DNA of 27,653 nucleotides. Source: a virus. Its lineage: Duplodnaviria; Caudoviricetes. The first letter of the stretch is position 1. Each line of letters starts with the position of its first letter. The stretch spans positions 1 through 27,653 of IMG/VR virus record IMGVR_UViG_3300020045_004789. One strand, 5' to 3'. Position numbers and translations under genes: made by a program. Below the pieces are notes generated by a model. It saw only the letters and a program-made list of their open reading frames with translations. It was not told the origin of the DNA and made no database searches. Below are positions 5,709-24,547 of this stretch, in pieces.

Positions 5709-8165
5709 TTATGCAACATAAGCATAAAGCCATACTGTTCCATTTGAATAGACGGTAGCTCCTGAGTAAGCAGCGTTCAAAACTTTTGTAGCAGCAGATG
5801 CACCACCACCAACCAGGTTTGTTCCGCCACCGTTGATAGTTATGTTATTTACTGCCGCCGTACCAGAGCCGTCTCTAATAACAAATGTTCTTCCTGCTAA
5901 GGCTGTAGCTGCAGGAAGCGTTACTTGTAAAACCCCCGCAGTTGTATCACAGTTAATCACATAGTCAGTTCCCAAAACTGTATAAGGAGTGTCAGCATTT
6001 GCTTTTGTTGTAATAGGAACAACCCATCCAGACGCAAATTTAATGCTTCCGGTGCCCGCTGTTAAATTAATTCTCGAGGCAGCCCCTCCAGCAGTAAAGT
6101 TCATAGCATCTGTTACGTTTTCCCCCGCACTTAACGTCATGGACCCGCTTGTGCAAGTAATAATTACATCTTTGGCTGCTGCTCCAGTTGCAACGATATT
6201 CATACCGCCACTGCTAGTAACATTGATGGAATCCGCGTTGGATTCGCCAGATGTCACATTCACTGCGCCAGCACTAGAAGACAATGTTAGATCTGCTGCC
6301 CCTGTTACAGTGAAATTTGAAGCAGTTGCAGAATCAATTGATACCGCTGCGGTAGTGTCTAGCGTAATACCACCAGTTCCCGCATCTACATCAATGCCGC
6401 CCGCTGCATTGCTAGCGTTTAACTTTATTGCATCAACCGCTCCTTCACCACCTTGTACAATGACGCTTCCGGCTGTTGAAAGAATGGTAATATCAAATGC
6501 CCCGGTGGCCGTTAAATTTGTTGCGCCAGCCGAATCCAATGACAAAACACCAGTAGAATCAACTGTAATACCACCAGTTCCTGCGTCAATGTCCATACCT
6601 CCAGCGGCATTACTTGCTATAATTCTTACTGCATCTGCGGCCGCTTGAGAAGAATCCAGATTCATTTGAAGAGCTACATCAACATCAAGACCACCCGCAG
6701 CCGCATCAATGTTAATTGCGTCTGTAGCCGCTTCGCCACCAGAAATAAGAATTGATCCAGCGGTTGAATTAACGGTAATATCAAATGCGCCTGTTGCAGT
6801 GAAGTTAGATGCTGCAGCGGCATCGAGAGAAATTGCTCCTGTTGTATCAAGAATAAATCCACTTGTGCCCGCATCCACATTGATGCCACCCGCTGCGCCA
6901 GATGCATTTATCGTGATAGCATTCACGTCCGATTCGGTTGCCTGGATATTGACACTAGAGCCTGTAGCAACGATGTCAATATCTTTGCCGGCTCCTGATC
7001 CAGTTGCCAGGATGTCTATACCGCCGGCCGTAGAAGTTAATGTGATAGAATCTGCGATGCTTTCTGTTGATTCGATCTTTACCGCTGATCCCGTCGCAGT
7101 GATTACTATGTCTTCGCCGGCTGCTGCTCCAGTAGATAATAGCTGAATCCCTCCAAGGGTAGATTCTAAATAAATGGCATCTCCAGCGCTTTCCGTAGAA
7201 ACCAGTCGAATCGAGGAGCCTGTCGCCGTAAGAGCAATATCCTCACCTCCTGTCGCTGAAGCTGCATTAATTTGAATACCGCCGACGCTCGAACTAATGA
7301 CGATAGAGTCCGCTACGTTCTCACCTGCTGTAATATTGACTGATCCAGCCGTACAAACAATGTCAATATCTTCCCCTGCTGCTCCTGCTGCGGTAACATC
7401 AATGCCCCCCGCAGACGCTATTAATTCGAGAGCATTAGCATGGTTTCTTGAAGATGTTAGGCTTAGAAGAAGGGCTACATCGACATCTAGGCCGCCTGCC
7501 GCCGCATCGATATTGATTGCATCCGTGGCCGCTTCGCCAGCGGTAATGTTGACAGCTCCCAGGGAACTCGATATGGTTGCATCAATTGCTGCGCCTGTAA
7601 CGCCGAAAGATGAAGCTGTATCAGAAGTGAGAATGTTTCCTGTTCCTACCCCGGTAGCCGCAAGATTTGTAAATGCACCTGCATTTGGTGCTGTACCGCC
7701 TATAGCAGGGGGGCTAGCTAAATTCGTTTTCAGCTTAAGAGGGGTAATTGCAGTATTGTCATTAGTACCCGTGTTAGTTTCTGCCTGTGTCGCCAGTTCA
7801 CCAATTCCCGATACAGTTTCAGACCAAGCAGGGGCACCAGCGATTGCGATCCCATCTACATAGTCTTTAATTTCTTTGACAGTTGGCACAAGAGTTAAGG
7901 AAGCAGCGTCCCCGAGTATAGTTGAGGATAATTGAACTATACCCGCCGCTGAAGTTGTAGCGTAGGCATTAGATCCAGCGTTCCATACTCCAGCAAATCC
8001 AGTAGTTGCATAAATTGTTTTTGCAGCAGAGCTCAGATCTTGCCATTGTGTTCCAGGTGGATATTGATCGTTTGTCGTTGGTGCGCGATTAGCTGAAATG
8101 AAAATTGGTCTAGAAGAGGTATTAGTAAGATTATCAAGAGGGTCTGAGGATACAAATCCTGTCAT
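5709..8165 (-). CDS. Main tail fibre protein (818 aa) with internal repeats
   Basis: T4 gp12/gp34-like motif SETVSGIGELATQAETNTGTNDNTAITPLKL; long run of ~22-23 aa Gly/Ala/Asp/Ile repeats; C-terminal TLPAA..GRTFVIRD..SNGTVW domain; SD GGAGA. Confidence 0.85.
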   Translation of the reverse strand: MTGFVSSDPLDNLTNTSSRPIFISANRAPTTNDQYPPGTQWQDLSSAAKTIYATTGFAGVWNAGSNAYATTSAAGIVQLSSTILGDAASLTLVPTVKEIKDYVDGIAIAGAPAWSETVSGIGELATQAETNTGTNDNTAITPLKLKTNLASPPAIGGTAPNAGAFTNLAATGVGTGNILTSDTASSFGVTGAAIDATISSSLGAVNITAGEAATDAINIDAAAGGLDVDVALLLSLTSSRNHANALELIASAGGIDVTAAGAAGEDIDIVCTAGSVNITAGENVADSIVISSSVGGIQINAASATGGEDIALTATGSSIRLVSTESAGDAIYLESTLGGIQLLSTGAAAGEDIVITATGSAVKIESTESIADSITLTSTAGGIDILATGSGAGKDIDIVATGSSVNIQATESDVNAITINASGAAGGINVDAGTSGFILDTTGAISLDAAAASNFTATGAFDITVNSTAGSILISGGEAATDAINIDAAAGGLDVDVALQMNLDSSQAAADAVRIIASNAAGGMDIDAGTGGITVDSTGVLSLDSAGATNLTATGAFDITILSTAGSVIVQGGEGAVDAIKLNASNAAGGIDVDAGTGGITLDTTAAVSIDSATASNFTVTGAADLTLSSSAGAVNVTSGESNADSINVTSSGGMNIVATGAAAKDVIITCTSGSMTLSAGENVTDAMNFTAGGAASRINLTAGTGSIKFASGWVVPITTKANADTPYTVLGTDYVINCDTTAGVLQVTLPAATALAGRTFVIRDGSGTAAVNNITINGGGTNLVGGGASAATKVLNAAYSGATVYSNGTVWLYAYVA

Positions 8166-8230
8166 ATAAATTCTCCATCGTACGATTGGTTAATTGTGAT
8201 CGCTAGCTAAGCGATTACGTTAATTTCTTC

Positions 8231-8290
8231 ATACGGTGGCGGGGCGTATTATACGGCCAATGACAGGACTGCGAATCCTTCTTTTCACGC
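8231..8290 (-). promoter_or_regulatory. Leader hairpins related to the capsid-leader motif
   Basis: GCGTGA-AAAGA-AGGA[TTCGCAG]TCCT and degenerate GCCGTA-TA-ATACG[CCCCGCCAC]CGTAT. Confidence 0.5.
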
Positions 8291-8298
8291 TGATTTAA

Positions 8299-8327
8299 AG
8301 CCTATCGATCTACATATTTATTAGCAA
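8299..8327 (-). promoter_or_regulatory. Putative late promoter for the fibre operon
   Basis: TTGCTA-N17-TAGGCT; 21/29 nt identical to 20020..20048. Confidence 0.6.
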
Positions 8328-8410: not shown

Positions 8411-8788
8411 ATGAGTATAGAAATAAAAGGAAAAGGTGCTGTTGGGATTGCAATATCGTACTATTCCCTACGTGGGATGGTGAGCATACCCCTTGAACCA
8501 TGTGATTACAATTTGATCTATGACAATGGACTTGTCTTATTTAGGGTTAAGGTAATCTCTTGTTCGTATAAAACGAAATATGGGATTTATTCCGCCTCTG
8601 TTAAAACCAGCGGAGGTAATCAACCTAAAACAGCAGTTAAAAAATTTAATTCCTGCTCATGCGATGGAGTTTTCATTGTCACATCCGATTTAGATATGTA
8701 TGAAATTCCATCCATTGAAATCAAATGCGGAAGACAGATTTCCCTGAATGTTTATGCTCATTACAAAGTAAATCTTGTTCCGGGTTAG
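8411..8788 (+). CDS. PD-(D/E)XK endonuclease-like protein (I-Ssp6803I / group I intron-associated family), probably catalytically degenerate
   Basis: KG..G.AI.YY...G.VSIPL...DYNLIYD...RVKVIS...SGGN...K.F...D..F...YEIP; canonical YDL and RVQVK read YNL and RVKVI. Confidence 0.65.
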   Translation: MSIEIKGKGAVGIAISYYSLRGMVSIPLEPCDYNLIYDNGLVLFRVKVISCSYKTKYGIYSASVKTSGGNQPKTAVKKFNSCSCDGVFIVTSDLDMYEIPSIEIKCGRQISLNVYAHYKVNLVPG

Positions 8789-8851
8789 CTCAGCGGTGGC
8801 AGCGGCGCCCTGTTAAGGCGTAGGTCGCAAGTTCGAATCTTGCACCCGGAG
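8779..8851 (+). tRNA. tRNA-Asn (anticodon GTT), CCA not encoded
   Basis: Acceptor TCCGGGT/ACCCGGA; anticodon arm GCGCC-CTGTTAA-GGCGT; T arm GCAAG-TTCGAAT-CTTGC; 3-bp D stem. Confidence 0.92.
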
Positions 8852-8879
8852 TTTTGTGGAAAATTTAAGGATTTTTAAT

Positions 8880-9195: not shown

Positions 9196-9393
9196 ATGAA
9201 GATAACGGCTAATAATTTTTTTATTTTTCCTGCCTTGATTTGGATTTCCTTTAATGTCATGTGGTTATATTTCAAGTATTCTGAAATGAATAAAAGATTA
9301 ATAAGAATCGAGAATGAGTTGATTTTAAATGGTATTATGCCTTCTGAATTGATCTCTAAGCCACTCTCTGATAAGGATATCCACCATTCTTAA
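9196..9393 (+). CDS. Single-TM plus short coiled-coil protein (65 aa)
   Basis: ATG 9196 after GAGGATAGG; TM followed by EMNKRLIRIENELIL, similar to the upstream ORF. Confidence 0.6.
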   Translation: MKITANNFFIFPALIWISFNVMWLYFKYSEMNKRLIRIENELILNGIMPSELISKPLSDKDIHHS

Positions 9394-9829
9394 TCAGGGT
9401 ATACATTGAAGCGCCAAGGGAAGGGACTTTACCTTTCCACCACTTACCCCATTTATTCTGACCATCTGTTCTAGCGGGGATTGCTCCTCGCTTGAATAGT
9501 TCGAAGATGACCCGGGGCACTCCTCCGTATTCGTAAACTGGGCCTTGACCTAAACCATCATTGCCTTGGAATTTAACGAGTAACTTTCCGCTGTCCTCAT
9601 CGAAATTGAATCCATAAACATTGCTACTTGGCATTTGGGCTGGAGGGACTTCTGGGACCTGAGGCGCTTCAATTGGGGTTTCTTCCTGAGCCATCTTAGC
9701 TTGTGCCAAAAATTTCAGACCCTCACGGATAAAATCTTCCACGACGCGTGCTTCTTCGTCTGTCAATTCATTAGCAGACGCTTGCACTAATTGCATATAC
9801 ATCTCCAGAAATTGAGCAAATTCGTCCAT
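9356..9829 (-). CDS. KTSC domain-containing protein
   Basis: SSNVYGFNFDEDSGKLLVKF...VYEYGGVP...SLGASMYTLIK..YPYQRV matches the KTSC pattern; acidic helical N-terminus. Confidence 0.8.
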   Translation of the reverse strand: MDEFAQFLEMYMQLVQASANELTDEEARVVEDFIREGLKFLAQAKMAQEETPIEAPQVPEVPPAQMPSSNVYGFNFDEDSGKLLVKFQGNDGLGQGPVYEYGGVPRVIFELFKRGAIPARTDGQNKWGKWWKGKVPSLGASMYTLIKNGGYPYQRVA

Positions 9830-13383: not shown

Positions 13384-15936
13384 TTAAACTCCTGGGGGCA
13401 TTTGTCGGCCCGCTTTTCTAATATATAATATTTGAGCATCAATCTGAACATCGCTTTCTTGTTCGATTCCAACCAACTGAGCCTTGGAAAGTAGCCATTC
13501 TAATGTGATAAATGCCCCACGAACTGGACAAAAGACTCTATACCAATTCTTAGAGGTCGCAATTCCTCCTAGAGTATACGTAGGAACCACCGAATTAAAG
13601 AATGTATCAGGAGCCAAAGTATCAGGATTTTGATTCTGAGGAGCTATATTGATCGGCGAGTTATTGTTGTAGTCCAGGTAGGTATTCAATGAAATCGCTC
13701 CAGCTTCCGTAGCGCTCATCAAGATGTCGATGAATCCCAATTGAATATTCTGCCCCTCGTCAAGGAAGTTAAACTTTTTGCTTATGATACTGAATCCATC
13801 TCTAATGGCGATTTGCCCCCCTCCAATATAGGTATCTGGAGCATCTAATTGAGGGGAGCTAAATTGCTGTGTAGATGGATTGTATTTCCAAAGTTCAAAA
13901 TTGTCTTTATCCACCACAATAATAGCGAAGATATTTCTTCCCTGACTTGTCCAGCTTCCACCAACGGTATACGCGGTGTATCCGGTAGAATCAGTATTGT
14001 CTAATGTGAATGTATTGGCACCAGTAACGGTAATAGTATAAACATTACCATTAAGCTGAGTCATCCCACCTACACCTTCTATTTTTACGCTATCACCCGT
14101 TGTTAATCGATGTAATGTGCTGGTGATTTGGCAAGGATTTGCTTGAGTGGCGCCTGTAATCAATCCAGCTTGTGGATTATTCAAAGAAGAGGCGAATGGA
14201 GTGCCTATCGGAATTTCTTTGATGCTTATCACATAGCCGTCTTGCATATTGTGATCTATGCAAGTTATTACTGTAGGTGTTGTGGTATTGCCTGTGACGT
14301 TAGAAACAGATAAGCTCACATCAGCGGATACTTTCGGCTGAAGGTTGGAAGAGAGATATTCTACGTATCCTTCTTGGTTTCCTCCTACAATAGAGGGAAA
14401 TTGAGAAGGAATATCTAACCATGGAAAATCTGCTTCTGACCATGGGAAAGGGGATGTATTCCATTTTCTTTGAACTGGATTTTGAAATGTTCCCAGTGTC
14501 GTTAACGAATCTGTAAAGATAGCCCATGAATCATTTTCATAGTTGTACACAAGGCGCCTGTTTGGGAATACTACTGAAAATCCATCGCCTGGATTAAAAT
14601 GGAATGTCCAATATGCTAAACGCTGTTGGAAATCTCTTATTCCATGAACCCGATTGGTCCCATTATTCTCATTCTTAAATTCAAATACCAGGTCAGGTAT
14701 TTTTATGTCGATGCGCTCCGACTTAAAGCTGTCACATTGCACTACACCTTTATCGCCAATGCCTACCAAGGAAGTATCAAATTGGACTGCGCTAAATGTT
14801 CCTTCGGCACCAAGTTCACTATTGACCTTCTCGATTTGGAATGGAGCTATTGCACGTCCCGTGTATCTAAGCTGCCAGGTGCTTCGCTCGCAATAGATAA
14901 CTAGGTTGTCACGAACGAATCCTACAGAAATGATATTCTCAGAGGTGGGGATATCTAGAAAGCCTCCTTGGCCTCTAATATCATCTCTCCAAGCATTTGC
15001 ATTGATATCAGCAGGAAGAGGAAATAAAGCGCTCACAGTAGAAATAGGGTTTCCAATAGCACACCATCGGATTCGTTGTCTATATTGGATTGAGGTAGCT
15101 AGATTAGCCCCTTCATAGGTGTTGAAAACCACCATCCTCCCTCGGAAAGGAAGCATAGCCAGACATTGAGCAAGCACATTTCCTGCTGCATCGATAGTTG
15201 GTGCAAAATCTATCCACACACTTGAATCGGTATATCGAATAGGATCTCCACCAGTCCCAGAGAAATTTGTCGCCCAGAAAAGTTTGGAATTGTTAGGAGC
15301 TGGCGTTACCCAATAATTTGTAGTCCAGAAAAAATCAGAATCACTTCCTGTCCAGGTCGTTCCGACAATAAATTCTTGCCATCCAGAGGAAAACTTGTAG
15401 GCATAAACCTGATCGAAGGCGATCAACTGTTCATTATTGATATTGTTAAGTTCACGTGATCGTAGTCCCATCACAGGAAGAGCGGGGAAGTAATTAAAAT
15501 CTATAGTGACAGCAATCCCGGCAAGGTTGGGATTGGTATTGATCGTAAGAGCAGTAGTGGCATAGTTAATGGTTCCGGTACCTCCTGCCCCATTGGTAAG
15601 AGTTCCATTAGCAGGAGTTGACTCAGTAAATGTTTGTGCACCTACATATACTGTTACCGACCCCGGTTCTATGGTTGCGTTTGCTTCGAGTGATAAGATA
15701 GCAATTAAATTTCCTGAAAAATTCCCGGCGCCATCGGTATTCCCGAGTGCTTGTGCTGTCAAAACCCTGCGAAGTCTTCCTAATAGCTGGTAGCCTTGCT
15801 TGCGCTTGATTCTCTCTCTCCAAACATAGGCATTTTCAAGAGTTGGATAGGCATCGTTGGGTAATAGGAATTCCTCACGCGACTGGACTAGGCCGGTCTC
15901 ATTGCCAGTGATTTTTAGTGGAGTATATCCGCTCAT
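13384..15936 (-). CDS. Tail nozzle / tail tubular protein B-like (850 aa) with inserted E1-FCCH-like domains
   Basis: Beta-propeller-like blades (FRGRMVVFN, RIRWCAIGNP, VRDNLVIYCERSTWQL, YNYENDSW); follows the adaptor gene as in podoviruses. Confidence 0.75.
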   Translation of the reverse strand: MSGYTPLKITGNETGLVQSREEFLLPNDAYPTLENAYVWRERIKRKQGYQLLGRLRRVLTAQALGNTDGAGNFSGNLIAILSLEANATIEPGSVTVYVGAQTFTESTPANGTLTNGAGGTGTINYATTALTINTNPNLAGIAVTIDFNYFPALPVMGLRSRELNNINNEQLIAFDQVYAYKFSSGWQEFIVGTTWTGSDSDFFWTTNYWVTPAPNNSKLFWATNFSGTGGDPIRYTDSSVWIDFAPTIDAAGNVLAQCLAMLPFRGRMVVFNTYEGANLATSIQYRQRIRWCAIGNPISTVSALFPLPADINANAWRDDIRGQGGFLDIPTSENIISVGFVRDNLVIYCERSTWQLRYTGRAIAPFQIEKVNSELGAEGTFSAVQFDTSLVGIGDKGVVQCDSFKSERIDIKIPDLVFEFKNENNGTNRVHGIRDFQQRLAYWTFHFNPGDGFSVVFPNRRLVYNYENDSWAIFTDSLTTLGTFQNPVQRKWNTSPFPWSEADFPWLDIPSQFPSIVGGNQEGYVEYLSSNLQPKVSADVSLSVSNVTGNTTTPTVITCIDHNMQDGYVISIKEIPIGTPFASSLNNPQAGLITGATQANPCQITSTLHRLTTGDSVKIEGVGGMTQLNGNVYTITVTGANTFTLDNTDSTGYTAYTVGGSWTSQGRNIFAIIVVDKDNFELWKYNPSTQQFSSPQLDAPDTYIGGGQIAIRDGFSIISKKFNFLDEGQNIQLGFIDILMSATEAGAISLNTYLDYNNNSPINIAPQNQNPDTLAPDTFFNSVVPTYTLGGIATSKNWYRVFCPVRGAFITLEWLLSKAQLVGIEQESDVQIDAQILYIRKAGRQMPPGV

Positions 15937-17889: not shown

Positions 17890-18930
17890 CTAAACTTCTA
17901 ATTTGTATGCCATCCAATTGATGATATCCAAACTAGCTCCTGCTGGGCTTGCAGCTCCACCACCAAGATACATATAAGGCGTAAACTGACCTGTATGGAA
18001 TGGTTGTTTGGAGAAGTCGTACCCAGTTTGCACCAAAGACACAGGATTAAAGCTAGTCTGAGCACCGGCTGGGGACAGAGTAGCAAATAATCTTGATGTT
18101 GGTGACAAGGCGGATGCTGGGAACGTAAATGTTGTAAATGCAGACGAATCTATGTCTACAGTCATGTTATAAGCTCCAATGCTTCCAGAAGCCGCCACAG
18201 CATTTACGGCTGTGATTGTTCCTGTAAGACCATCCATCTGTGTCATACTGAAAGATGAAGGGACAGAGAATCTGATCTTCATACCAACAACATAGAAAGC
18301 AGAAGGATCAACAGACGTACTAATTACCGCTGATGTCGCTTTTGAAATGTTTGTGATGTACAACATTTCTGGGTCAACTGCTGCAAATTTTGAGACTCGG
18401 CGAGTCACTCCACTTGTCGCTGCTGCCAAACCGTTTCCAGCTACGTTAGCTAAACCAAGAAGGGTATAGCCTGCGCCAGATACTGACGAAATTTGGAATA
18501 CCATTCCACCGATTGTCAAATCTCCAGTAGAACTGTAAATGCGTACATAATCACCATTGGAATAGGTATTAGTCTGAGTTACTACAGCAGGGTTTGCGGC
18601 TGTCATCCCAGTGATTAAATTAGCATTCGCAGCTTCAACATATGGACTTACTGTCACATATGTAAAACCATCTGATGCGGTTGCTGTTGCAAAAGTATCG
18701 ATTAAGATCGCGTTTGTTCCCGCTTTTCTCCATCTGATTCCATCATTTGCCGCAGAAGCGCCAGCACCAAATTTTGGTCCGAACCATTCTCCTGCCACAC
18801 AAACAGTACCAGCAGCAGCCATTTGTGTTACGTTTACCGTCTTGAAATAGTCGGCAGAGCTAGGAATAGGAATTTTAACGCCAACTCCAGTAGAGGTGAA
18901 TGAACCACCATCTAAAATTGTAAAAGCCAT
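17890..18930 (-). CDS. Putative capsid decoration/minor head protein with two FCCH-like domains (346 aa)
   Basis: Directly after the capsid gene, before the terminator; ITGMTAANPAVVT and ITNISKATSAVIS repeats; SD AAGGAG. Confidence 0.65.
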   Translation of the reverse strand: MAFTILDGGSFTSTGVGVKIPIPSSADYFKTVNVTQMAAAGTVCVAGEWFGPKFGAGASAANDGIRWRKAGTNAILIDTFATATASDGFTYVTVSPYVEAANANLITGMTAANPAVVTQTNTYSNGDYVRIYSSTGDLTIGGMVFQISSVSGAGYTLLGLANVAGNGLAAATSGVTRRVSKFAAVDPEMLYITNISKATSAVISTSVDPSAFYVVGMKIRFSVPSSFSMTQMDGLTGTITAVNAVAASGSIGAYNMTVDIDSSAFTTFTFPASALSPTSRLFATLSPAGAQTSFNPVSLVQTGYDFSKQPFHTGQFTPYMYLGGGAASPAGASLDIINWMAYKLEV

Positions 18931-18941
18931 ATTGTTTCTCC

Positions 18942-19898
18942 TTATAGTCTTGCGGTTACGTTCAAACCAGAGATCCAGTTTTGGTTTGTAATCGCACGGG
19001 CAATTGCAAACTTAGCATAGAGCTGGCTGTTTTGAGCCACGCTAGATACGACATACGGAGGTCTGTAGCCTAAGATTGCAGAATAGTTATTCTGGTCGAT
19101 CTTAGCAGCAGCTTCTAGGCCATACATCGGAATAGTGTAGACTGTTGCTCCATTGAGAGAAGCTCCAGGGATTTTAGCAGCTTTAGAAGACACGAAGAAT
19201 CTAAAGCGTGATACGGAGCAATATTCTTCAGGACGCAAACCTTCTTGATTAGGATAAGCATTTTTGAGAAGAACGCCCCCAACGTTTTGAAGGTCAGGTG
19301 TGATGTCGGTTGAAGCCAAAGCGATGAATGCATCTCTAGTTGGTGCTGTGCCGAACTTCAGGCCTGCATCGATCCCTTCGAGCATTGTACGCGCATCGTT
19401 ACCAAGCAAAATTCGCTCGATGTTGTTAATATCTTTACGGTCAATCTCACTTGGCTGATCGCCGTTTACTCCCCCTACCGCGTTTATATAACTAACTGAA
19501 CTAGAATAAAGATCTCTCATTAAAAGATCTTCCTTTTCTCGTAACCATTGTCCTAATAAAGCAGTAAACTTAGTTAGTACTTTATCATTCTCATACAAAG
19601 TAACTTGTTCGTTAATTACAACTGTCTTAGCGTAGATTTCCATCGTTGCATCGACATCAGTACGTACGACAACTTCGGGAGCTGGATCAATACCAGAACC
19701 GTCGAGTTGACCACCGTCGGTAGACAGACGCTCATATCGAGACATACGTGTTGTCTTACCGATATGCGCTTCTGCATAGTGAAGATCCGCACCAAAGGAG
19801 TGGATCAGGTTAAACATTGGGGTAGACAATAAGTCTTCGCTGAACTGTAAAGGAAGTTCAGGAGCCATATTGTTAATATTTGTGATGCCATTGGCCAT
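18942..19898 (-). CDS. Major capsid protein, N4-gp56-like (318 aa)
   Basis: GKTTRMSRYERL motif, size, position after the scaffold; ATG 19898 follows SD AGGTG by 6 nt (preferred over GTG 19907). Confidence 0.85.
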   Translation of the reverse strand: MANGITNINNMAPELPLQFSEDLLSTPMFNLIHSFGADLHYAEAHIGKTTRMSRYERLSTDGGQLDGSGIDPAPEVVVRTDVDATMEIYAKTVVINEQVTLYENDKVLTKFTALLGQWLREKEDLLMRDLYSSSVSYINAVGGVNGDQPSEIDRKDINNIERILLGNDARTMLEGIDAGLKFGTAPTRDAFIALASTDITPDLQNVGGVLLKNAYPNQEGLRPEEYCSVSRFRFFVSSKAAKIPGASLNGATVYTIPMYGLEAAAKIDQNNYSAILGYRPPYVVSSVAQNSQLYAKFAIARAITNQNWISGLNVTARL

Positions 19899-19934
19899 GA
19901 TTAACACCTATTTCAAGTGTTTAGTTCTAATTCT

Positions 19935-20012
19935 GTTGTTTGCGAGACAACTAAATCAGCTACACTTGCGAAGGTGTTAATCAGCAGGAGGCTAGCGACG
20001 CCGTATATCAGC
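19935..20012 (-). promoter_or_regulatory. Three tandem GCTGAT + hairpin (TCGCWA loop) units in the capsid leader
   Basis: Units 19986-20012, 19961-19985 and 19935-19960, with different but paired stems. Confidence 0.75.
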
Positions 20013-20019
20013 TTTTTTT

Positions 20020-20048
20020 AGCTTATCAACCTAAATATTTTATGACAA
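20020..20048 (-). promoter_or_regulatory. Putative late promoter for the capsid operon
   Basis: TTGTCA-N17-TAAGCT; predicted start site immediately before the first GCTGAT unit. Confidence 0.65.
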
Positions 20049-20053
20049 TAAGA

Positions 20054-20782
20054 CTATCTTCCACCGCTCTTCATCGTGCGTTGCATTCTAGCCCAGTTAT
20101 CTTGCCGTCTCTTCTCATCGAGCATCATCGGTGCTGAATCTGTCGTCTGAGTAGTGCCTCCTACCGCCATAGATTGAGGCTTATTAAAGTTCTTCTCTGC
20201 CGATTTTTGATCTTTCTTGGAGTTAGGATTAGGCACGAACCTCTTTACAGCCTTATAGATTGCTGCCCATTTGTCATATCCATCCGGTAAATGCTTATAA
20301 GGAGCCGCTACCTCCGGATAATGATACTCAAGATAGTCCAGATTCTCAGTGTTGCATACTTGATCGAAGTCGGAGAAATTAGCTACTAAGCGTTGAGGGA
20401 ACTCCTGCTGCTCTCTTAGACGCTTTTCCTCTTCATACTGACGATCGCGCTTAGCCATCATCTCTTCGACACGCTTATCAATCTTCTGCTCTTCGGTTAG
20501 CTCTTCAGCTTCTTGGTGTACATTCTGTTGAGAAGGCTTATTGAGCAACGATTCCATTGCAGCTTTAAGGGCGGCTATCTCTTCGGCTTTCTTAGCCGCT
20601 TCTCGTTCTGCAAGTTCTTTGGCTTTTCTATCTTGCTCTCGCGCTTCCCGGAACTTTTTCCAATTAATTTGCTCTGGAGTTTCTTGATTTGGTTCAACAC
20701 TCTTTTTTTCAGTGGCATTTAAATTATTCTCTTGCACGTTTTGTTTTACTTCTTCTACCTTAGTGTTAACAACTTCATCCAT
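20054..20782 (-). CDS. Capsid scaffolding protein (242 aa)
   Basis: Charged coiled coil (NWKKFREAREQDRK...), directly upstream of the capsid gene; SD AAGGAG. Confidence 0.75.
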   Translation of the reverse strand: MDEVVNTKVEEVKQNVQENNLNATEKKSVEPNQETPEQINWKKFREAREQDRKAKELAEREAAKKAEEIAALKAAMESLLNKPSQQNVHQEAEELTEEQKIDKRVEEMMAKRDRQYEEEKRLREQQEFPQRLVANFSDFDQVCNTENLDYLEYHYPEVAAPYKHLPDGYDKWAAIYKAVKRFVPNPNSKKDQKSAEKNFNKPQSMAVGGTTQTTDSAPMMLDEKRRQDNWARMQRTMKSGGR

Positions 20783-20794
20783 CTGTGACTCCTT

Positions 20795-21073
20795 ATGTCT
20801 GATTTAGATATTGCTGAAAAAATCAAAGATTCTCAAGAGAAATTGCAAGAAGATTTATCACATTACAGGAGAACATTGTATTATTTGGGAGCGAACGTTC
20901 CTATTCAAGTATTGTGTTTACCAAAAACTCTGGAGACATTACTGATTAACGACGGCTGTCTTCGTGTCTATGATCTTATCAATAGAGACTTTACTAAAAT
21001 CAAAGGCATCGGTAGTACCCGGCTCGCACTCCTTACATCCCGCCTTGACGAGTTTCTCTCTATTAGCGTTTAG
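20795..21073 (+). CDS. RNA polymerase alpha subunit C-terminal domain-like (HhH) protein
   Basis: PIQVLCLPKTLETLLINDGCLRVYDLINRDFTKIKGIGSTRLALL follows the alpha-CTD pattern I..L.L......L...G...V.DL....KI.G.G. Confidence 0.7.
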   Translation: MSDLDIAEKIKDSQEKLQEDLSHYRRTLYYLGANVPIQVLCLPKTLETLLINDGCLRVYDLINRDFTKIKGIGSTRLALLTSRLDEFLSISV

Positions 21074-21544
21074 ATATTCTATCTCCGAAAGATGATCAAA
21101 ATTGTTTTCTTTACGGATTTGATGCCAAAAGTTTTTATTGAAGAAAGCATCACACCAACCTTTAGTCCTCTCCCATTTCTTTGCAACTACTTGTGCTTCC
21201 GAGATTGCAGCCATAACTTTCGCAGGGGGGAGGGACCAGATAAATTTGAGAGTATCTTTGGCCTTATTGTATAGAAATACGGCTTGTTCTGGTCTGGGAC
21301 TTGGCATATAGGGATAGGAATAGAACTTTTGGCGGACGATACCTTGGATGAGTGGGTCGCTTGCTCTCACCATTACCACGAAGAATTCAGGCTCGTCGAT
21401 GATATTTAAATGGGTATGAGCGCTTTCCATTAATTGCTTATGGAGATCATGCATCTGCCCTTCGGCTACTTCCCTACCATCATATAGAGAAGAATCCGAT
21501 TGAGCTTTAAGAGATAGCTCACCAGCAGTTTTACGACGCTTCAT
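20939..21544 (-). CDS. Hypothetical phage protein (201 aa)
   Basis: TAATG coupling to the upstream gene; globular composition; in the head operon. Confidence 0.75.
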   Translation of the reverse strand: MKRRKTAGELSLKAQSDSSLYDGREVAEGQMHDLHKQLMESAHTHLNIIDEPEFFVVMVRASDPLIQGIVRQKFYSYPYMPSPRPEQAVFLYNKAKDTLKFIWSLPPAKVMAAISEAQVVAKKWERTKGWCDAFFNKNFWHQIRKENNFDHLSEIEYLNANREKLVKAGCKECEPGTTDAFDFSKVSIDKIIDTKTAVVNQ

Positions 21545-21720
21545 TAGTGCTTAAAGCTCTTTAGGGTCTCAGCTAAGCGGGCTCGCTTGGCTAGCCTCGG
21601 GTTCTTACTTTTCTCTGCCTTTTTGAGCTTAGACTCCGGAATCTTTTCCCCTTTCTTCACATGAAGAGACTTTCTAAGTGCTCCTGGTTTTTTTATTGCA
21701 CCAGAAATCCAATCAGCCAT
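21544..21720 (-). CDS. Small basic phage protein, 58 aa (not in ORF track)
   Basis: MADWISGAIKKPGALRKSLHVKKGEKIPESKLKKAEKSKNPRLAKRARLAETLKSFKH; SD GAGG; recognisable WI..AIK.PGAL...RA.LA.TL phage motif. Confidence 0.8.
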   Translation of the reverse strand: MADWISGAIKKPGALRKSLHVKKGEKIPESKLKKAEKSKNPRLAKRARLAETLKSFKH

Positions 21721-21763
21721 TAATGATCCTCACCATTTCCTTTGATATATTTTACTCCCTTTT

Positions 21764-21895
21764 CTATTTTCTTTTAGATAGAGGAACTCTTGAAAACATC
21801 ATTGATTTTCTATTTGGATTTTCATCTTTCTTAATCTTTTTTGCAATTTTTTCAGCAATCGACAAATGTTTTTTTGTAGTTTGTTTTTTTTTCAT
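21764..21895 (-). CDS. Small Lys-rich protein, 43 aa (not in ORF track)
   Basis: MKKKQTTKKHLSIAEKIAKKIKKDENPNRKSMMFSRVPLSKRK; SD GAGG; starts 1 nt after the upstream stop. Confidence 0.55.
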   Translation of the reverse strand: MKKKQTTKKHLSIAEKIAKKIKKDENPNRKSMMFSRVPLSKRK

Positions 21896-21896
21896 C

Positions 21897-22121
21897 TTAA
21901 TGATCCTCTCGATTTACTTTGATATGCGTGGTTTTTCTCTCATCTGAAGACTTAGGATTAAAATCTGCCCCTTCAGTAAGAATCATGTTCTTACTTGGAT
22001 TAGTCGCATCATACGTTCTTTCCCAATGCTCGCCTGGAATAGCTCGCTTGTTCCCCTTAGAATGACCAAGCTGGGATGTGCCTGGATTGCGGTTGTTCTC
22101 TTTACCAAATTTGTGTGGCAT
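21897..22121 (-). CDS. Small hydrophilic protein (74 aa)
   Basis: SD GAGGG; operon packing. Confidence 0.65.
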   Translation of the reverse strand: MPHKFGKENNRNPGTSQLGHSKGNKRAIPGEHWERTYDATNPSKNMILTEGADFNPKSSDERKTTHIKVNREDH

Positions 22122-22128
22122 AGTCCCT

Positions 22129-22245
22129 CTATTTCAAGCGAATAATTTTAGCTTTCTTTCCTTTAGGAACTTCCAAAAACTTGGAAATTCCTTCTTTTGA
22201 TCCTTTGAGAGCCTTTTCAGCTTTCTTCCTGTCAGATTTTTTCAT
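22129..22245 (-). CDS. Small Lys-rich protein, 38 aa (not in ORF track)
   Basis: MKKSDRKKAEKALKGSKEGISKFLEVPKGKKAKIIRLK; SD AAGGA. Confidence 0.55.
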   Translation of the reverse strand: MKKSDRKKAEKALKGSKEGISKFLEVPKGKKAKIIRLK

Positions 22246-22255
22246 TTTTGTTCCT

Positions 22256-22305
22256 TTTCCGATTTCCGATTTTCTTAAATCCCTATGGAATCGGAAAATC
22301 GGAAA
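22256..22305. repeat. Intergenic inverted repeat built from tandem TTCCGAT units
   Basis: TTTCCGATTTCCGATT ... AATCGGAAAATCGGAAA. Confidence 0.7.
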
Positions 22306-22311
22306 TACGAG

Positions 22312-22497
22312 TTAATATTTCATTTTGTTCTTTTTAGCATAGGCAGCAAGTGCCGCTGTGCTTCTGCTGAGATCTTGAGGATTGCCAAACTCCGTAGCAT
22401 ATTTCATTTTGCTAGATTGGCCAAGTTCCCCTTCGTTTCTTTCGAATTGGGAAGCTGGCATTTTAGCGCTTCTCATTCCACCTTTTTCTTTGCTCAT
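22312..22497 (-). CDS. Small basic protein (61 aa)
   Basis: ATG 22497 after GGAGGG, 1 nt after the portal stop (preferred over 22548). Confidence 0.7.
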   Translation of the reverse strand: MSKEKGGMRSAKMPASQFERNEGELGQSSKMKYATEFGNPQDLSRSTAALAAYAKKNKMKY

Positions 22498-22498
22498 A

Positions 22499-24547
22499 TT
22501 ACCCTCCTTGGGCTTGTTGAACGGGAGCTTTGTTGTTTTGCTGCCCATTATTAGCTAATTTAATTGCTTCCGCCATTTCGAAGCTAGCACGGAAGTTTGC
22601 GAGATCCATATCTTCTAGGCCTATCATCATCTTTACTAGGTCTAGATCAGCACCCATGCGCTTGTGTTCTGCATCTGCATGGATTTCCTCTACCTTCGCG
22701 ATTTTTTCTTGAACACTGGCCAGTCTCTCTTCTGCTTGAGCCAGGTCAGAACGCGCTTTTGCATGTTTTGCCACCACTTCCGCATTGTCTTTCTCCTTCT
22801 GGGTTTGAGCTTGCTCTTGTTGCATCTGCTGCTGTTGCTGCGTCTGCTCCTGCATTGCTTGAATAACCTCTGCCTTGTTGGAGATAAAGGCAGCTTGAAG
22901 TATTGACTTATCGGCGATTGGCATTCCAAGCTCTTTGAAATGCAATAGCTGTTGTAATTCCATTTGTCTTTGAGTTGTAGAGTAGTTTCCTTCCTCTACG
23001 GCAATTGAGTATTTTAAAGCGTGGGCTGTCCAGAATCTTGGATCGGCGTCGTGGCCGAGAATGCTTTTAATTTTTCCCTTGGAAAAGTTCTTGCGAATCG
23101 CTTGGAGGCGAATCTTTCCGTAGAGTCTCTGAGAATAGTCTGCTTTGTCGAATATAGTCTGCAAAGTAGTAAGTCCTGCTCCTTGTCGCAACATAGATAG
23201 GATGCCTGACTTGTCATCTGTGGCGGCTCCTAGGAGTTCTTCGTTTACTCCTGAAATCTTGGTGATGTCTTCGGATAAAGCTCTTGAGAGTTCAATCATC
23301 GATGCTGGGATCGCGGGAGCTTCGATGCGCTGAAGCTCTTGAGCTGTATGTCCTGCCTTAAGTGGTACTAGGAATCCTTGACCTTGCTGACGGAAAGCTT
23401 TGGGGTCTACTACTGCATCAATAGGATAAATCCATCCACTATTAATTTGAGATTCAAGGATGTCTAATTCTATGACTTTTCTTCGGTTGTATAAATACTG
23501 AGCGTCTCTTAGATTTCTTACTACTCCCTGAATGCGCCACGCATAAGATTGGATATCTGGTTCGTGATAGCATAGCATCGGCACAAACGGGTATGAATCA
23601 ATATTAAGTAAATTTGGCCCATCATACAAAACATGGCTACCTAGACAGATTGCGAGCTTGACAGTAGGAACTTGTTGTTTCTTGACCACAAGCCAAGGTT
23701 GTTGAGCTAATGTACGCTCCATCATGTCATCTTCGTCTTCCTCATCATGCTCCCATTCGACCGCCTCTCCGCTTTTAGGATCTAGTACAATGGTAGCTTC
23801 GCGTGTAGCTCGGTAGTGGAATTCGTCATAGGGAAACAGGGAATTGGTATCGAGGTTGATCAGTTCAGCTTGTAAAGGGAACCTTCCATCCTTCATGCCC
23901 GATGGTTGCATCTTATCTATCTCTTTAGCATGGCCAGGAAGGAGAGCCTTAGCTTGAGTCTTGTTTACCCATCGACGTCTCCATATCGCGGTGCAATCAG
24001 TTAGATCTTGCTTACGATAGTAGGGATCTATCAAGAAATTATTATAGGATACTTGGTCTGTAAATAGATCGCCAGAAATAGGGTCCATAGTGTAATCAGG
24101 ATATAAATGCAGTAGAGAGCAACCCGTATCCATTGCTCCTTCGAACGCTTGCGAAAAGTATTCTTGGAATCCATCTCTATCCTCACTCCATCTTAAGACG
24201 GCATTATAGTCATCGGCCAGAGCATCATTTTCTAGATTGGGCATTGTGACGGTAGATTTACGGTTCTTACGCTGATAGCCAACAATCATATTGATATGAC
24301 GACGGATCAGGTTGAAGAAGAAACGCCTAGCTTGGAAGTATTGATTATCGCCGTAGATCATAGACCAGAGGGTTTGGTCACCTACTTTGAATCTCTTGTC
24401 TATTGCCCCTTGCTGCCAGTAAACGCCATTCGACGGGTAACTAGCCTGATAGAAGTGAGACATGAATTGCTTGATGTTCTTGGCGTTGACATCGGAAGGA
24501 TCTATATAGCCGATACCGCCAAATTGACCATTGTCGTAGGAGCCGAT
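22499..24547 (-). CDS. Portal protein, P22-like (first ATG 24463; likely true start ATC 24547)
   Basis: NLIRRHINMIVGYQRKNR, GVVRNLRDAQYLYNRR, ISGVNEELLG...SG motifs; Gln-rich C-terminal coiled-coil barrel; follows the terminase. Confidence 0.9.
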   Translation of the reverse strand: MGSYDNGQFGGIGYIDPSDVNAKNIKQFMSHFYQASYPSNGVYWQQGAIDKRFKVGDQTLWSMIYGDNQYFQARRFFFNLIRRHINMIVGYQRKNRKSTVTMPNLENDALADDYNAVLRWSEDRDGFQEYFSQAFEGAMDTGCSLLHLYPDYTMDPISGDLFTDQVSYNNFLIDPYYRKQDLTDCTAIWRRRWVNKTQAKALLPGHAKEIDKMQPSGMKDGRFPLQAELINLDTNSLFPYDEFHYRATREATIVLDPKSGEAVEWEHDEEDEDDMMERTLAQQPWLVVKKQQVPTVKLAICLGSHVLYDGPNLLNIDSYPFVPMLCYHEPDIQSYAWRIQGVVRNLRDAQYLYNRRKVIELDILESQINSGWIYPIDAVVDPKAFRQQGQGFLVPLKAGHTAQELQRIEAPAIPASMIELSRALSEDITKISGVNEELLGAATDDKSGILSMLRQGAGLTTLQTIFDKADYSQRLYGKIRLQAIRKNFSKGKIKSILGHDADPRFWTAHALKYSIAVEEGNYSTTQRQMELQQLLHFKELGMPIADKSILQAAFISNKAEVIQAMQEQTQQQQQMQQEQAQTQKEKDNAEVVAKHAKARSDLAQAEERLASVQEKIAKVEEIHADAEHKRMGADLDLVKMMIGLEDMDLANFRASFEMAEAIKLANNGQQNNKAPVQQAQGG

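Follow-up and report, generated by a model that had tools for sequence, protein, structure and literature searches.

The mom message of phage Mu is shut by an inhibition hairpin that the Com protein opens, according to the accessible part of PMC6483171. By analogy, the element described here appears to work most like Com/mom, and its layout resembles that of tandem mini-riboswitches such as guanidine-II. In the accessible account of Com/mom, as seemingly at our locus, a late phage mRNA is turned OFF by a hairpin over its start signals, an adjacent hairpin is the proposed landing site and motifs are repeated; however, the Com zinc finger reads a CC-N2..3-GAG loop motif, whereas here we observe a covarying pseudoknot in 2-4 copies, before virion genes and at two promoters (PMC6483171). 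A start-sequestering default hairpin, as in Com/mom-type activation, is predicted computationally in the window, by which we mean the whole stretch of DNA analysed (27,653 nucleotides, the full extent of IMG/VR record IMGVR_UViG_3300020045_004789). The unit loop consensus lacks CC-N2..3-GAG, no Com family is present among the ORFs of the window, itself a fragment, and inspection of the shared gene clusters reveals no conserved Com-like ORF.

Guanidine-II (mini-ykkC) RNAs, as far as the partial sources describe them, are likewise tandem small hairpins with similar loops that lie in the 5' UTR and exert translational ON control. Their ACGR tetraloops kiss each other, whereas the 7-nt loops N-U-C-G-Y-N-A of the present element pair with their own 5' strand, and the genes that follow encode virion proteins. 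Loop-loop kissing between units is not supported, as the loops covary with their own 5' box and not with those of neighbours.

Two further phage systems offer partial parallels. The T4 gene 32 operator, as covered in the available sections of PMC10690425, is also a phage leader pseudoknot and serves as the nucleation site for a cooperative protein, but it is a single pseudoknot used for autogenous repression of an SSB gene, whereas the knots here oppose an anti-SD helix, as expected of activation, and precede two genes. In P22 scaffolding autoregulation, a head-assembly protein of a P22-portal phage is similarly implicated in translational control, but it acts on its own synthesis, whereas the present element follows the scaffold gene and precedes the capsid and tail-fibre genes (bioRxiv 10.1101/2022.12.13.520362, in the part available).

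Among catalogued RNAs, GP20-a and GP20-b are predicted cis RNAs before head genes (available sections of PMC10690425), but cmscan gives no match of either to the element. The same sections list the Fremin 2023 candidates DNAVirus_3698 and DNAVirus_865 within 25 nt of capsid_maj_N4 genes (37/180 and 4/139 sequences, respectively), with DNAVirus_865 spread over soil, freshwater and rhizosphere. These are automatic predictions of 85 and 62 nt with 2 covarying pairs and no function; compared by their table description only, they may overlap part of the element, and with this qualification the RNA family is apparently uncatalogued. An Rfam 15 cmscan of the window reports a tRNA only, the array region at E<=10 yields one snoRNA (9.4 bits vs 50), six loci of relatives at E<=1 give nothing credible over the leaders, and the sister genomes show tRNAs and int-alpA only, elsewhere than in the leaders. 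The earlier note's impression of a new RNA motif is thus in keeping with scans of the window, the region and the relatives, which show no match over the element. A literature search found no published description of the element, and the accessible part of PMC10085705 makes no mention of it.

Genomic context

The virus record is a 27.6-kb fragment with a late operon on the - strand, which encodes the terminase large subunit, a P22-like portal, a 201-aa protein, a probable scaffold, an N4-gp56 capsid, virion proteins and an 818-aa tail-fibre-like protein (Table 1). The nearest named Atlas cluster of the 242-aa ORF is 'scaffolding protein' (score 0.93, with the family on 13% of members), which we treat as a lead only, and the 818-aa protein has Atlas neighbours that resemble tail-fibre or baseplate proteins (about 0.9). 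Between the portal and 201-aa genes, at 21544-22548 (-), lies a patchily conserved cluster of small, strongly basic ORFs (43-78 aa), which possibly encode core or RNA-binding proteins. A C1q-like domain is seen in a tail-region protein (1435-1995, -) and an E1 FCCH-like domain in an 850-aa virion protein (13384-15936, -).

The fragment belongs to a group of uncultured soil- and water-type bacteriophages with 241 capsid-encoding stretches in IMG/VR, next to a sister clade with 264. Its relatives are 35-39-kb phages, many of them with terminal repeats. One relative (G002) encodes an integrase and another (G001) is classed as a provirus, and the group is therefore at least partly temperate. With regard to the host, a capsid search of GenBank phages gave no match, the portal found matches of ~21-23% only, five GTDB contigs fall in unrelated MAG bins and look like co-binned phage contigs, an HTH protein has no plasmid match, and a resolvase matches many genera at ~53%. 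A suspected link to Chlamydiae as hosts found no support from any search or from the literature. In a related phage, the C-terminal domain of RNA polymerase alpha is encoded as a stand-alone protein (L212:11053-11472), and int-alpA RNA (RF02996) scores above gathering in two relatives, outside the leader (L272:1116-1180; L428:14225-14289).

Table 1. Features of the window around the two arrays and in the late operon
Feature	Position	Strand	Details
Predicted sigma70-type promoter	20020..20048	-	-35 TTGTCA 20048-20043; 17-nt AT-rich spacer; -10 TAAGCT 20025-20020
Unit 1	19990..20013	-	box AGC(U)G 20013-20009; stem GGC/GCC; loop GUCGCUA; box predicted to pair with loop CGCU
Unit 2 (putative switch unit)	19962..19986	-	box UGC(U)G 19986-19982; stem ACAC/GUGU; loop CUUCGCAA
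Unit 3	19935..19961	-	box AGC(U)G 19961-19957; stem GUUGU/ACAAC; loop CUCGCAA
Spacer and translation-initiation region	19896..19934	-	SD AGGUG 19909-19905; AUG 19898-19896; 3' arm of the predicted OFF hairpin
N4-gp56 family major capsid protein, 318 aa, putative controlled gene 1	18942..19898	-	TIGR04387 E 3.6e-24, 85.7 bits vs cut-off 60; phrog_1357
346-aa virion-type protein, co-transcribed with capsid	17890..18930	-	phrog_584, weak
Terminator-like hairpin, 3' of the 346-aa gene, two genes downstream of the array	17878-17860	-	
242-aa coiled-coil protein, probable scaffold, candidate trigger	20054..20782	-	by position; 31/31 genomes
201-aa protein, candidate trigger	20939..21544	-	no family or fold match
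818-aa tail-fibre-like protein, putative controlled gene 2	5709..8165	-	phrog_972 tail fibre E 4.8e-10, short stretches
Second array	8163..8291	-	unit AGCG 8291-8288 / AGGA[UUCGCAG]UCCU; unit GGC(C)G 8258-8254 / UACG[CCCCGCCAC]CGUA
Second predicted promoter	8299..8327	-	-35 TTGCTA 8327-8322; 17 nt; -10 TAGGCT 8304-8299; +1 near A8291; by eye

The capsid-leader array is conserved and begins at a predicted transcription start

Three units of box, stem and loop are present on the - strand at 20012-19935 exactly as the earlier note wrote them. Within the window, GCTGAT-N4..12-TCGCWA has 3 matches, all at the array, against 0.02 expected, and this number is reached in 0/100 shuffles. The three hairpins alone (86 nt) are no more stable than shuffled sequences (z +0.50; 132/200 shuffles as good).

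Searches with the capsid yielded 80 viral loci at 80-93%, and a relative at 68% led to a further 80. Removal of duplicates and short leaders left 109 leaders (71/81 of the first set and 38 new), and 7 with no SD match were dropped to give 102. Conservation in relatives, on which the earlier note had made its motif depend, is evident in that 98/102 parsed leaders carry 1-5 units (none in 4, one in 13, two in 22, three in 58, four in 4 and five in 1). The note had taken both box and loop to be fixed; what is kept across these leaders is box-loop complementarity, whereas 'GCUGAU' is not the conserved unit, the box varying in step with the loop (GGCUG, GACUG, AGCG and GGUUG, among others). The stems, which were noted to differ in sequence and still pair, show covariation in the relatives' alignments. 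Six capsid leaders (L014, L019, L020, L022, L029 and L039) have additional, unrelated hairpins separating unit 1 from unit 2, with the units themselves undisturbed, so unit spacing is free there.

The predicted +1, A20013, is the first base of the unit 1 box, as judged from the sequence. In a generic promoter scan (9-of-12 cut-off) the capsid promoter scores below threshold; it was read by eye and then scored separately. In 74/102 leaders the first unit is >=78 nt away from the start; 33/74 of these have a strict sigma70-like match whose end falls 4-9 nt ahead of the first box (26 of them at exactly 6 nt), against 0-6/74 at shifted positions. This agrees with the placement of the array at a predicted transcription start in the earlier note.

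A two-unit covariance model, R1, matched 68/80 metagenome loci at E<=0.01, some of these contigs being duplicates of the training set, and returned no row for 5 loci, three of which have a leader of <45 nt. Other searches were less useful. An exact two-unit pattern scan of viral contigs hit at least 120 loci, and the 80 inspected comprised 3 capsid leaders and otherwise chance-like matches in coding DNA; a single-unit model, R2, is too weak for genome searches (1/33 sister genomes, with unit 2 of the window missed); and for distant capsids, alignment A1 is too divergent for scanning and P0130 found nothing.

Covariation supports a pseudoknot in each unit

Comparative evidence establishes each unit as a predicted module of ~25 nt, in which a 5' strand N-R-C-(bulge)-G would pair with the 7-nt loop N-U-C-G-Y-N'-A of its own hairpin. 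The earlier note had suggested such a box-loop pseudoknot, and it turns out to be the conserved core, each 5' box pairing with its own loop over 4 bp with a bulge. Such a short knot (4 bp), with a single nucleotide in its third loop, is unusual among H-type pseudoknots.

In alignment A2 (56 leaders, made up of the window and 55/57 leaders with three parsed units, two near-duplicates being omitted), all 18 named pairs, including 8/8 knot pairs, show two-sided compensatory changes. The A2 knot cells are 97.8% and 97.6% paired, a level reached in 0/500 shuffles and compared with 20-45% in slid controls, the percentages being inflated because the parser that picked A2 and A3 requires pairing. The informative part is therefore the exchange of pair types. 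For example, in A3 (135/142 units with seven-nt loops and the 3 window units, 138 in all) the second knot pair is G-C in 102, A-U in 36 and mismatched in 0. A parser blind to complementarity, though noisy and picking wrong boxes in some rows, finds 128/190 matches of loops to their own box, compared with 18/121 to the next box, 15/121 to the previous box and a mean of 56.8 (maximum 73) in shuffles. Mapped on the capsid tree, the second knot pair (X2) changes in concert 12 times in unit 2 (with 12 and 13 single-side changes) and in 7/7 cases in unit 3, compared with 4 in cross-unit controls. RNAalifold independently found two of the unit stems.

Base identity is loosely constrained. The loop U is the sole invariant base among the 138 units, with three more positions at >=90%; the bulge is U, A, C, G or absent in 107, 38, 19, 4 and 22 cases in a noisy parse; and the box-loop spacing varies from 7 to 15 nt. 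By eye, the last knot pair also flips in variants, from G-C to A-U or C-G, and one sub-clade has its middle unit replaced by an AGAG/CUCU knot. In the unit stems, G-U outnumbers A-C by 30 to 7, which favours RNA of the - strand as the folded molecule.

A predicted OFF hairpin competes with the units

When the extra 40 nt up to the start codon are included, the default fold is a long hairpin that buries the SD and AUG (-38.4 kcal/mol, z -3.91, 0/200 shuffles). Within unit 2, 19983-19972 is a perfect 12-nt complement of the SD-to-start stretch 19909-19898, and 19968-19962 complements 19920-19914. The earlier note mentions neither this competing anti-SD hairpin nor the second array and the permuted units described below. 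The unit 3 hairpin forms the apex of the OFF hairpin, with the unit 3 box captured, and unit 1 is predicted to be free in both states because it lies outside. Comparison shows that in relatives the last unit but one likewise complements the SD region; its own fold and the OFF fold are predicted to be mutually exclusive. In the free ensemble the SD has P(open)<0.3 in 90/98 leaders, and its pairing partner lies inside a unit in 79/98, mostly the unit ~70 nt upstream. RNAalifold did not predict the OFF helix from the alignment, as its register shifts between phages and is not column-alignable.

Across 86 leaders, the duplex of the switch unit with its own start region has a median of -18.8 kcal/mol, against -11.8 with the regions of other phages; the own region is better than the mean in 80/86 and in the top 5% in 41/86 (unit-1 control 3/66), these own-versus-other tests being confounded by relatedness. 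The duplex of unit 1 with the start region is weak (median -7.7) and shows no own-region preference. Opening the SD-to-start stretch costs 12.6 kcal/mol in the free ensemble, and this drops to 4.4 when the units are held and to 5.7 when the sequence upstream is shuffled; the corresponding costs for the window are 19.0, 6.5 and 6.2 kcal/mol. Holding the units lowers the cost by >3 kcal in 73/86 leaders, and of the 13/86 that gain 3 kcal or less several form a sub-clade whose variant middle unit is missed by the parser.

Forcing the units leaves the SD mostly paired within local hairpins: its P(open) has a median of 0.27, exceeds 0.7 in 1/98 leaders and is 0.02 in the window, so the ON state would be only relatively open. 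In the window, a weak local hairpin (-5.7) persists in the spacer and initiation region when the units are formed. Holding the units costs a median of ~20 kcal/mol, counted without pseudoknot or ligand energy, and a switch would therefore need strong binding or kinetic capture. The general layout of a riboswitch, with a 5' UTR site and a mutually exclusive expression platform, is present in these computations. Taken together, the models lead us to regard the element as a real, conserved and pseudoknotted structure that would act in a switch-like manner as an anti-SD ON switch of more than one gene.

A second array precedes a tail-fibre-like gene

R1 located a second array at 8163-8260 (E 2.8e-4), before the 818-aa tail-fibre-like gene, and here too a long OFF hairpin is predicted to fold onto the GGAG/AUG region (-39.9, z -4.22). 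When 19 clade genomes were scanned blind, 35 arrays emerged, 17 of them ahead of the capsid gene, 10 (in 10/19 genomes) ahead of the tail-type gene cluster and 8 elsewhere; for comparison, 19 shuffled genomes contained 13 adjacent pairs. R1 matched 46 of 50 related records, and 17 had a second match. At all 18 weaker-scoring sites (the 17 second matches and the only match of G045) two units are seen by eye to precede an in-frame start, and a promoter-like stretch is likewise visible at most of them. The second array is absent from G001 and G002. At both sites, complementarity to the SD is retained throughout the clade. A second array with a predicted promoter of its own before a tail-fibre-like gene points to a late-gene regulon, and as the arrays precede two unrelated genes, they are not confined to the gene of their own binding protein, as a T4 gene 32-type operator would be. 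A short way upstream of the second promoter, the opposite strand carries a tRNA-Asn(GTT) (8778-8852, +).

Permuted units in a sister clade

Capsids of the sister clade are 35% identical and their genomes give no R1 match. Three forms of the same core occur in their capsid leaders: units like those of the window, units surrounded by a long stem, and units with swapped strand order, which start with the (U/A)CGN strand and have NCGU(U/C)A as the loop strand. Among 73 script-picked swapped candidates, the variable pair is CGC/GCG in 41, CGU/ACG in 13, CGG/CCG in 3 and not fully complementary in 16, counts in which the CG core was set by the regular expression and some rows are out of register; looser parsing gives 65/122. 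The permuted units are counted by script only, and MAFFT failed to register their 5' strand. The SD of the sister leaders sits in a short local hairpin with no link to the units, from which it is separated by variable inserts, and the same modules therefore probably act otherwise there.

Sister leaders L438-L517 show a third element, with a unit-type core inside a long conserved stem and a covarying inner helix of two base pairs. The capsid gene of G052 (L429:15995-16210) has a ~210-nt intron-like insertion near codon 10, over which an Rfam gathering scan found nothing, and 200+ extra bases in other sister capsid matches (L493, L503, L508, L510-L512 and L514-L517) suggest similar insertions. 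A tRNA lies near the capsid leader in sister genomes.

Proposed mechanism and alternatives

We hypothesize, with a probability of roughly one half, that the element is a cis-acting translational ON switch in the 5' UTRs of two separately promoted late transcripts, flipped by a multivalent late phage protein. The host-type promoters of both genes would fire early or in the lysogen, and with promoters active at such times the message would be OFF by default, folding into the long hairpin. The pseudoknot would hide the loop bases that seed SD pairing. A late trans-acting factor may then bind the units by shape and multivalently, with unit 1 as a landing pad, and hold unit 2 knotted, probably co-transcriptionally, thereby freeing the ribosome site. 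The low base invariance, variable bulge, variable copy number, free unit 1 and large energy gap favour a multivalent protein, and that every knot pair can flip and unit number varies points to a protein over a small molecule.

A broader reading, which we regard as doubtful, is that of a modular RNA sensor of a new kind. Such a pseudoknot, ~25 nt long and found in either strand order and in 1-5 copies, would sense a small host or infection signal or a new-fold protein and license capsid and tail-fibre synthesis in temperate phages, making it a riboswitch class carried by phages that gates the assembly of virions. It is unlikely, although this is the main rival, that the mini-pseudoknots are aptamers of a new class of small-molecule or ion riboswitch; tandem copies would then give a steep response, and ligand binding would free the SD and thereby restrict capsid and tail-fibre production to times when the host or the infection supplies a signal. 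Such a class would fit the small size, the location in the 5' UTR from +1, the anti-SD expression platform, and a bulged pseudoknot with a loop that we take to be U-turn-like. The permuted forms retain the core duplex, and tandem minimal aptamers are known from the available guanidine-II descriptions. However, invariant bases are few, the bulge is variable or missing, the arrays precede only phage virion genes, the energy gap to the OFF state is large and no Rfam riboswitch matches.

The arrays begin at +1, a terminator-like hairpin lies two genes downstream and the sister units are set apart from a locally paired SD by variable inserts, all of which would suit units that dock a host factor or the RNA polymerase, whether for antitermination of the nut/put type, for protection of the 5' end or for S1-type ribosome standby, with the anti-SD pairing secondary and limited to one clade. 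We consider this improbable, as that complementarity is kept at both sites across the clade and no boxA/boxB or put-like Rfam family matches. A little less probable still is a ligand-free kinetic timer, in which the knots fold first and delay the OFF hairpin, allowing a burst of translation per nascent transcript under control at the promoter. The units are local and 40-100 nt before the SD, the OFF fold is far more stable, and pairing is strict while base identity is loose, as a timer would have it; but it leaves unexplained both unit 1, which lies outside the OFF hairpin yet is kept at +1 at both sites, and the sharing of the core duplex by sister leaders, in which no link to an anti-SD helix is seen. 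DNA-level operator repeats, ssDNA hairpins (e.g. N4-type promoter hairpins), which the earlier note had allowed for, or chance are very unlikely, for despite the direct-repeat look in the window and a + strand that folds too (z -3.27), the covariation is crossing, the box-loop spacing spans 7-15 nt, G-U exceeds A-C (30 vs 7) in the unit stems, the units pair to the SD/AUG and the site is downstream of a sigma70-type promoter.

For tailed phages, the timing of late genes is usually ascribed to transcription; here, in a widespread uncultured group, an RNA switch common to two promoters seems to time the most abundant virion proteins. Few structured motifs with complete pseudoknot covariation are as small as this module, which has natural permutations and a predicted dynamic range of 12 to 4 kcal/mol, and is thus directly testable in an E. 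coli reporter. Such tests could bring to light a previously unseen riboswitch ligand or RNA-binding protein fold, plus a compact synthetic ON switch.

Candidate triggers

The factor is most likely a phage protein of the upstream terminase-portal-scaffold operon, perhaps the 201-aa orphan-fold protein or the scaffold. Two other triggers were considered. Autoregulation by the capsid protein was downgraded in view of the second array site, two target genes disfavouring autoregulation, and an antisense sRNA was rejected, since box and loop differ between units within one leader and such unit-specific sequences exclude a single antisense RNA.

Near the element, the two clades share the scaffold-like ORF (31/31 genomes) and the 201-aa protein. 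The latter is found in 19/19 clade genomes, with a homolog in 12/12 sister genomes (hhalign 99.4%). Its gene is on the capsid strand in 19/19 clade genomes versus 0/12 sister genomes; there it runs the other way, an arrangement that would suit a regulator expressed on its own and that we take as a lead only. The AF2 model of the 201-aa protein has a pLDDT of 86.5; Pfam, PDB sequences and Foldseek against solved structures gave no match, and VIA gave a best Z of 3.2 with no RNA-binding fold seen, a lack of matches that does not establish a new fold. In BFVD it matches uncharacterised phage proteins only. A further trigger candidate may be a 157-aa ORF at 9356-9829 (-), present in 19/19 clade genomes and absent from the sister clusters, with a weak match (24 bits, cut-off 25) to KTSC, a predicted nucleic-acid-binding domain.
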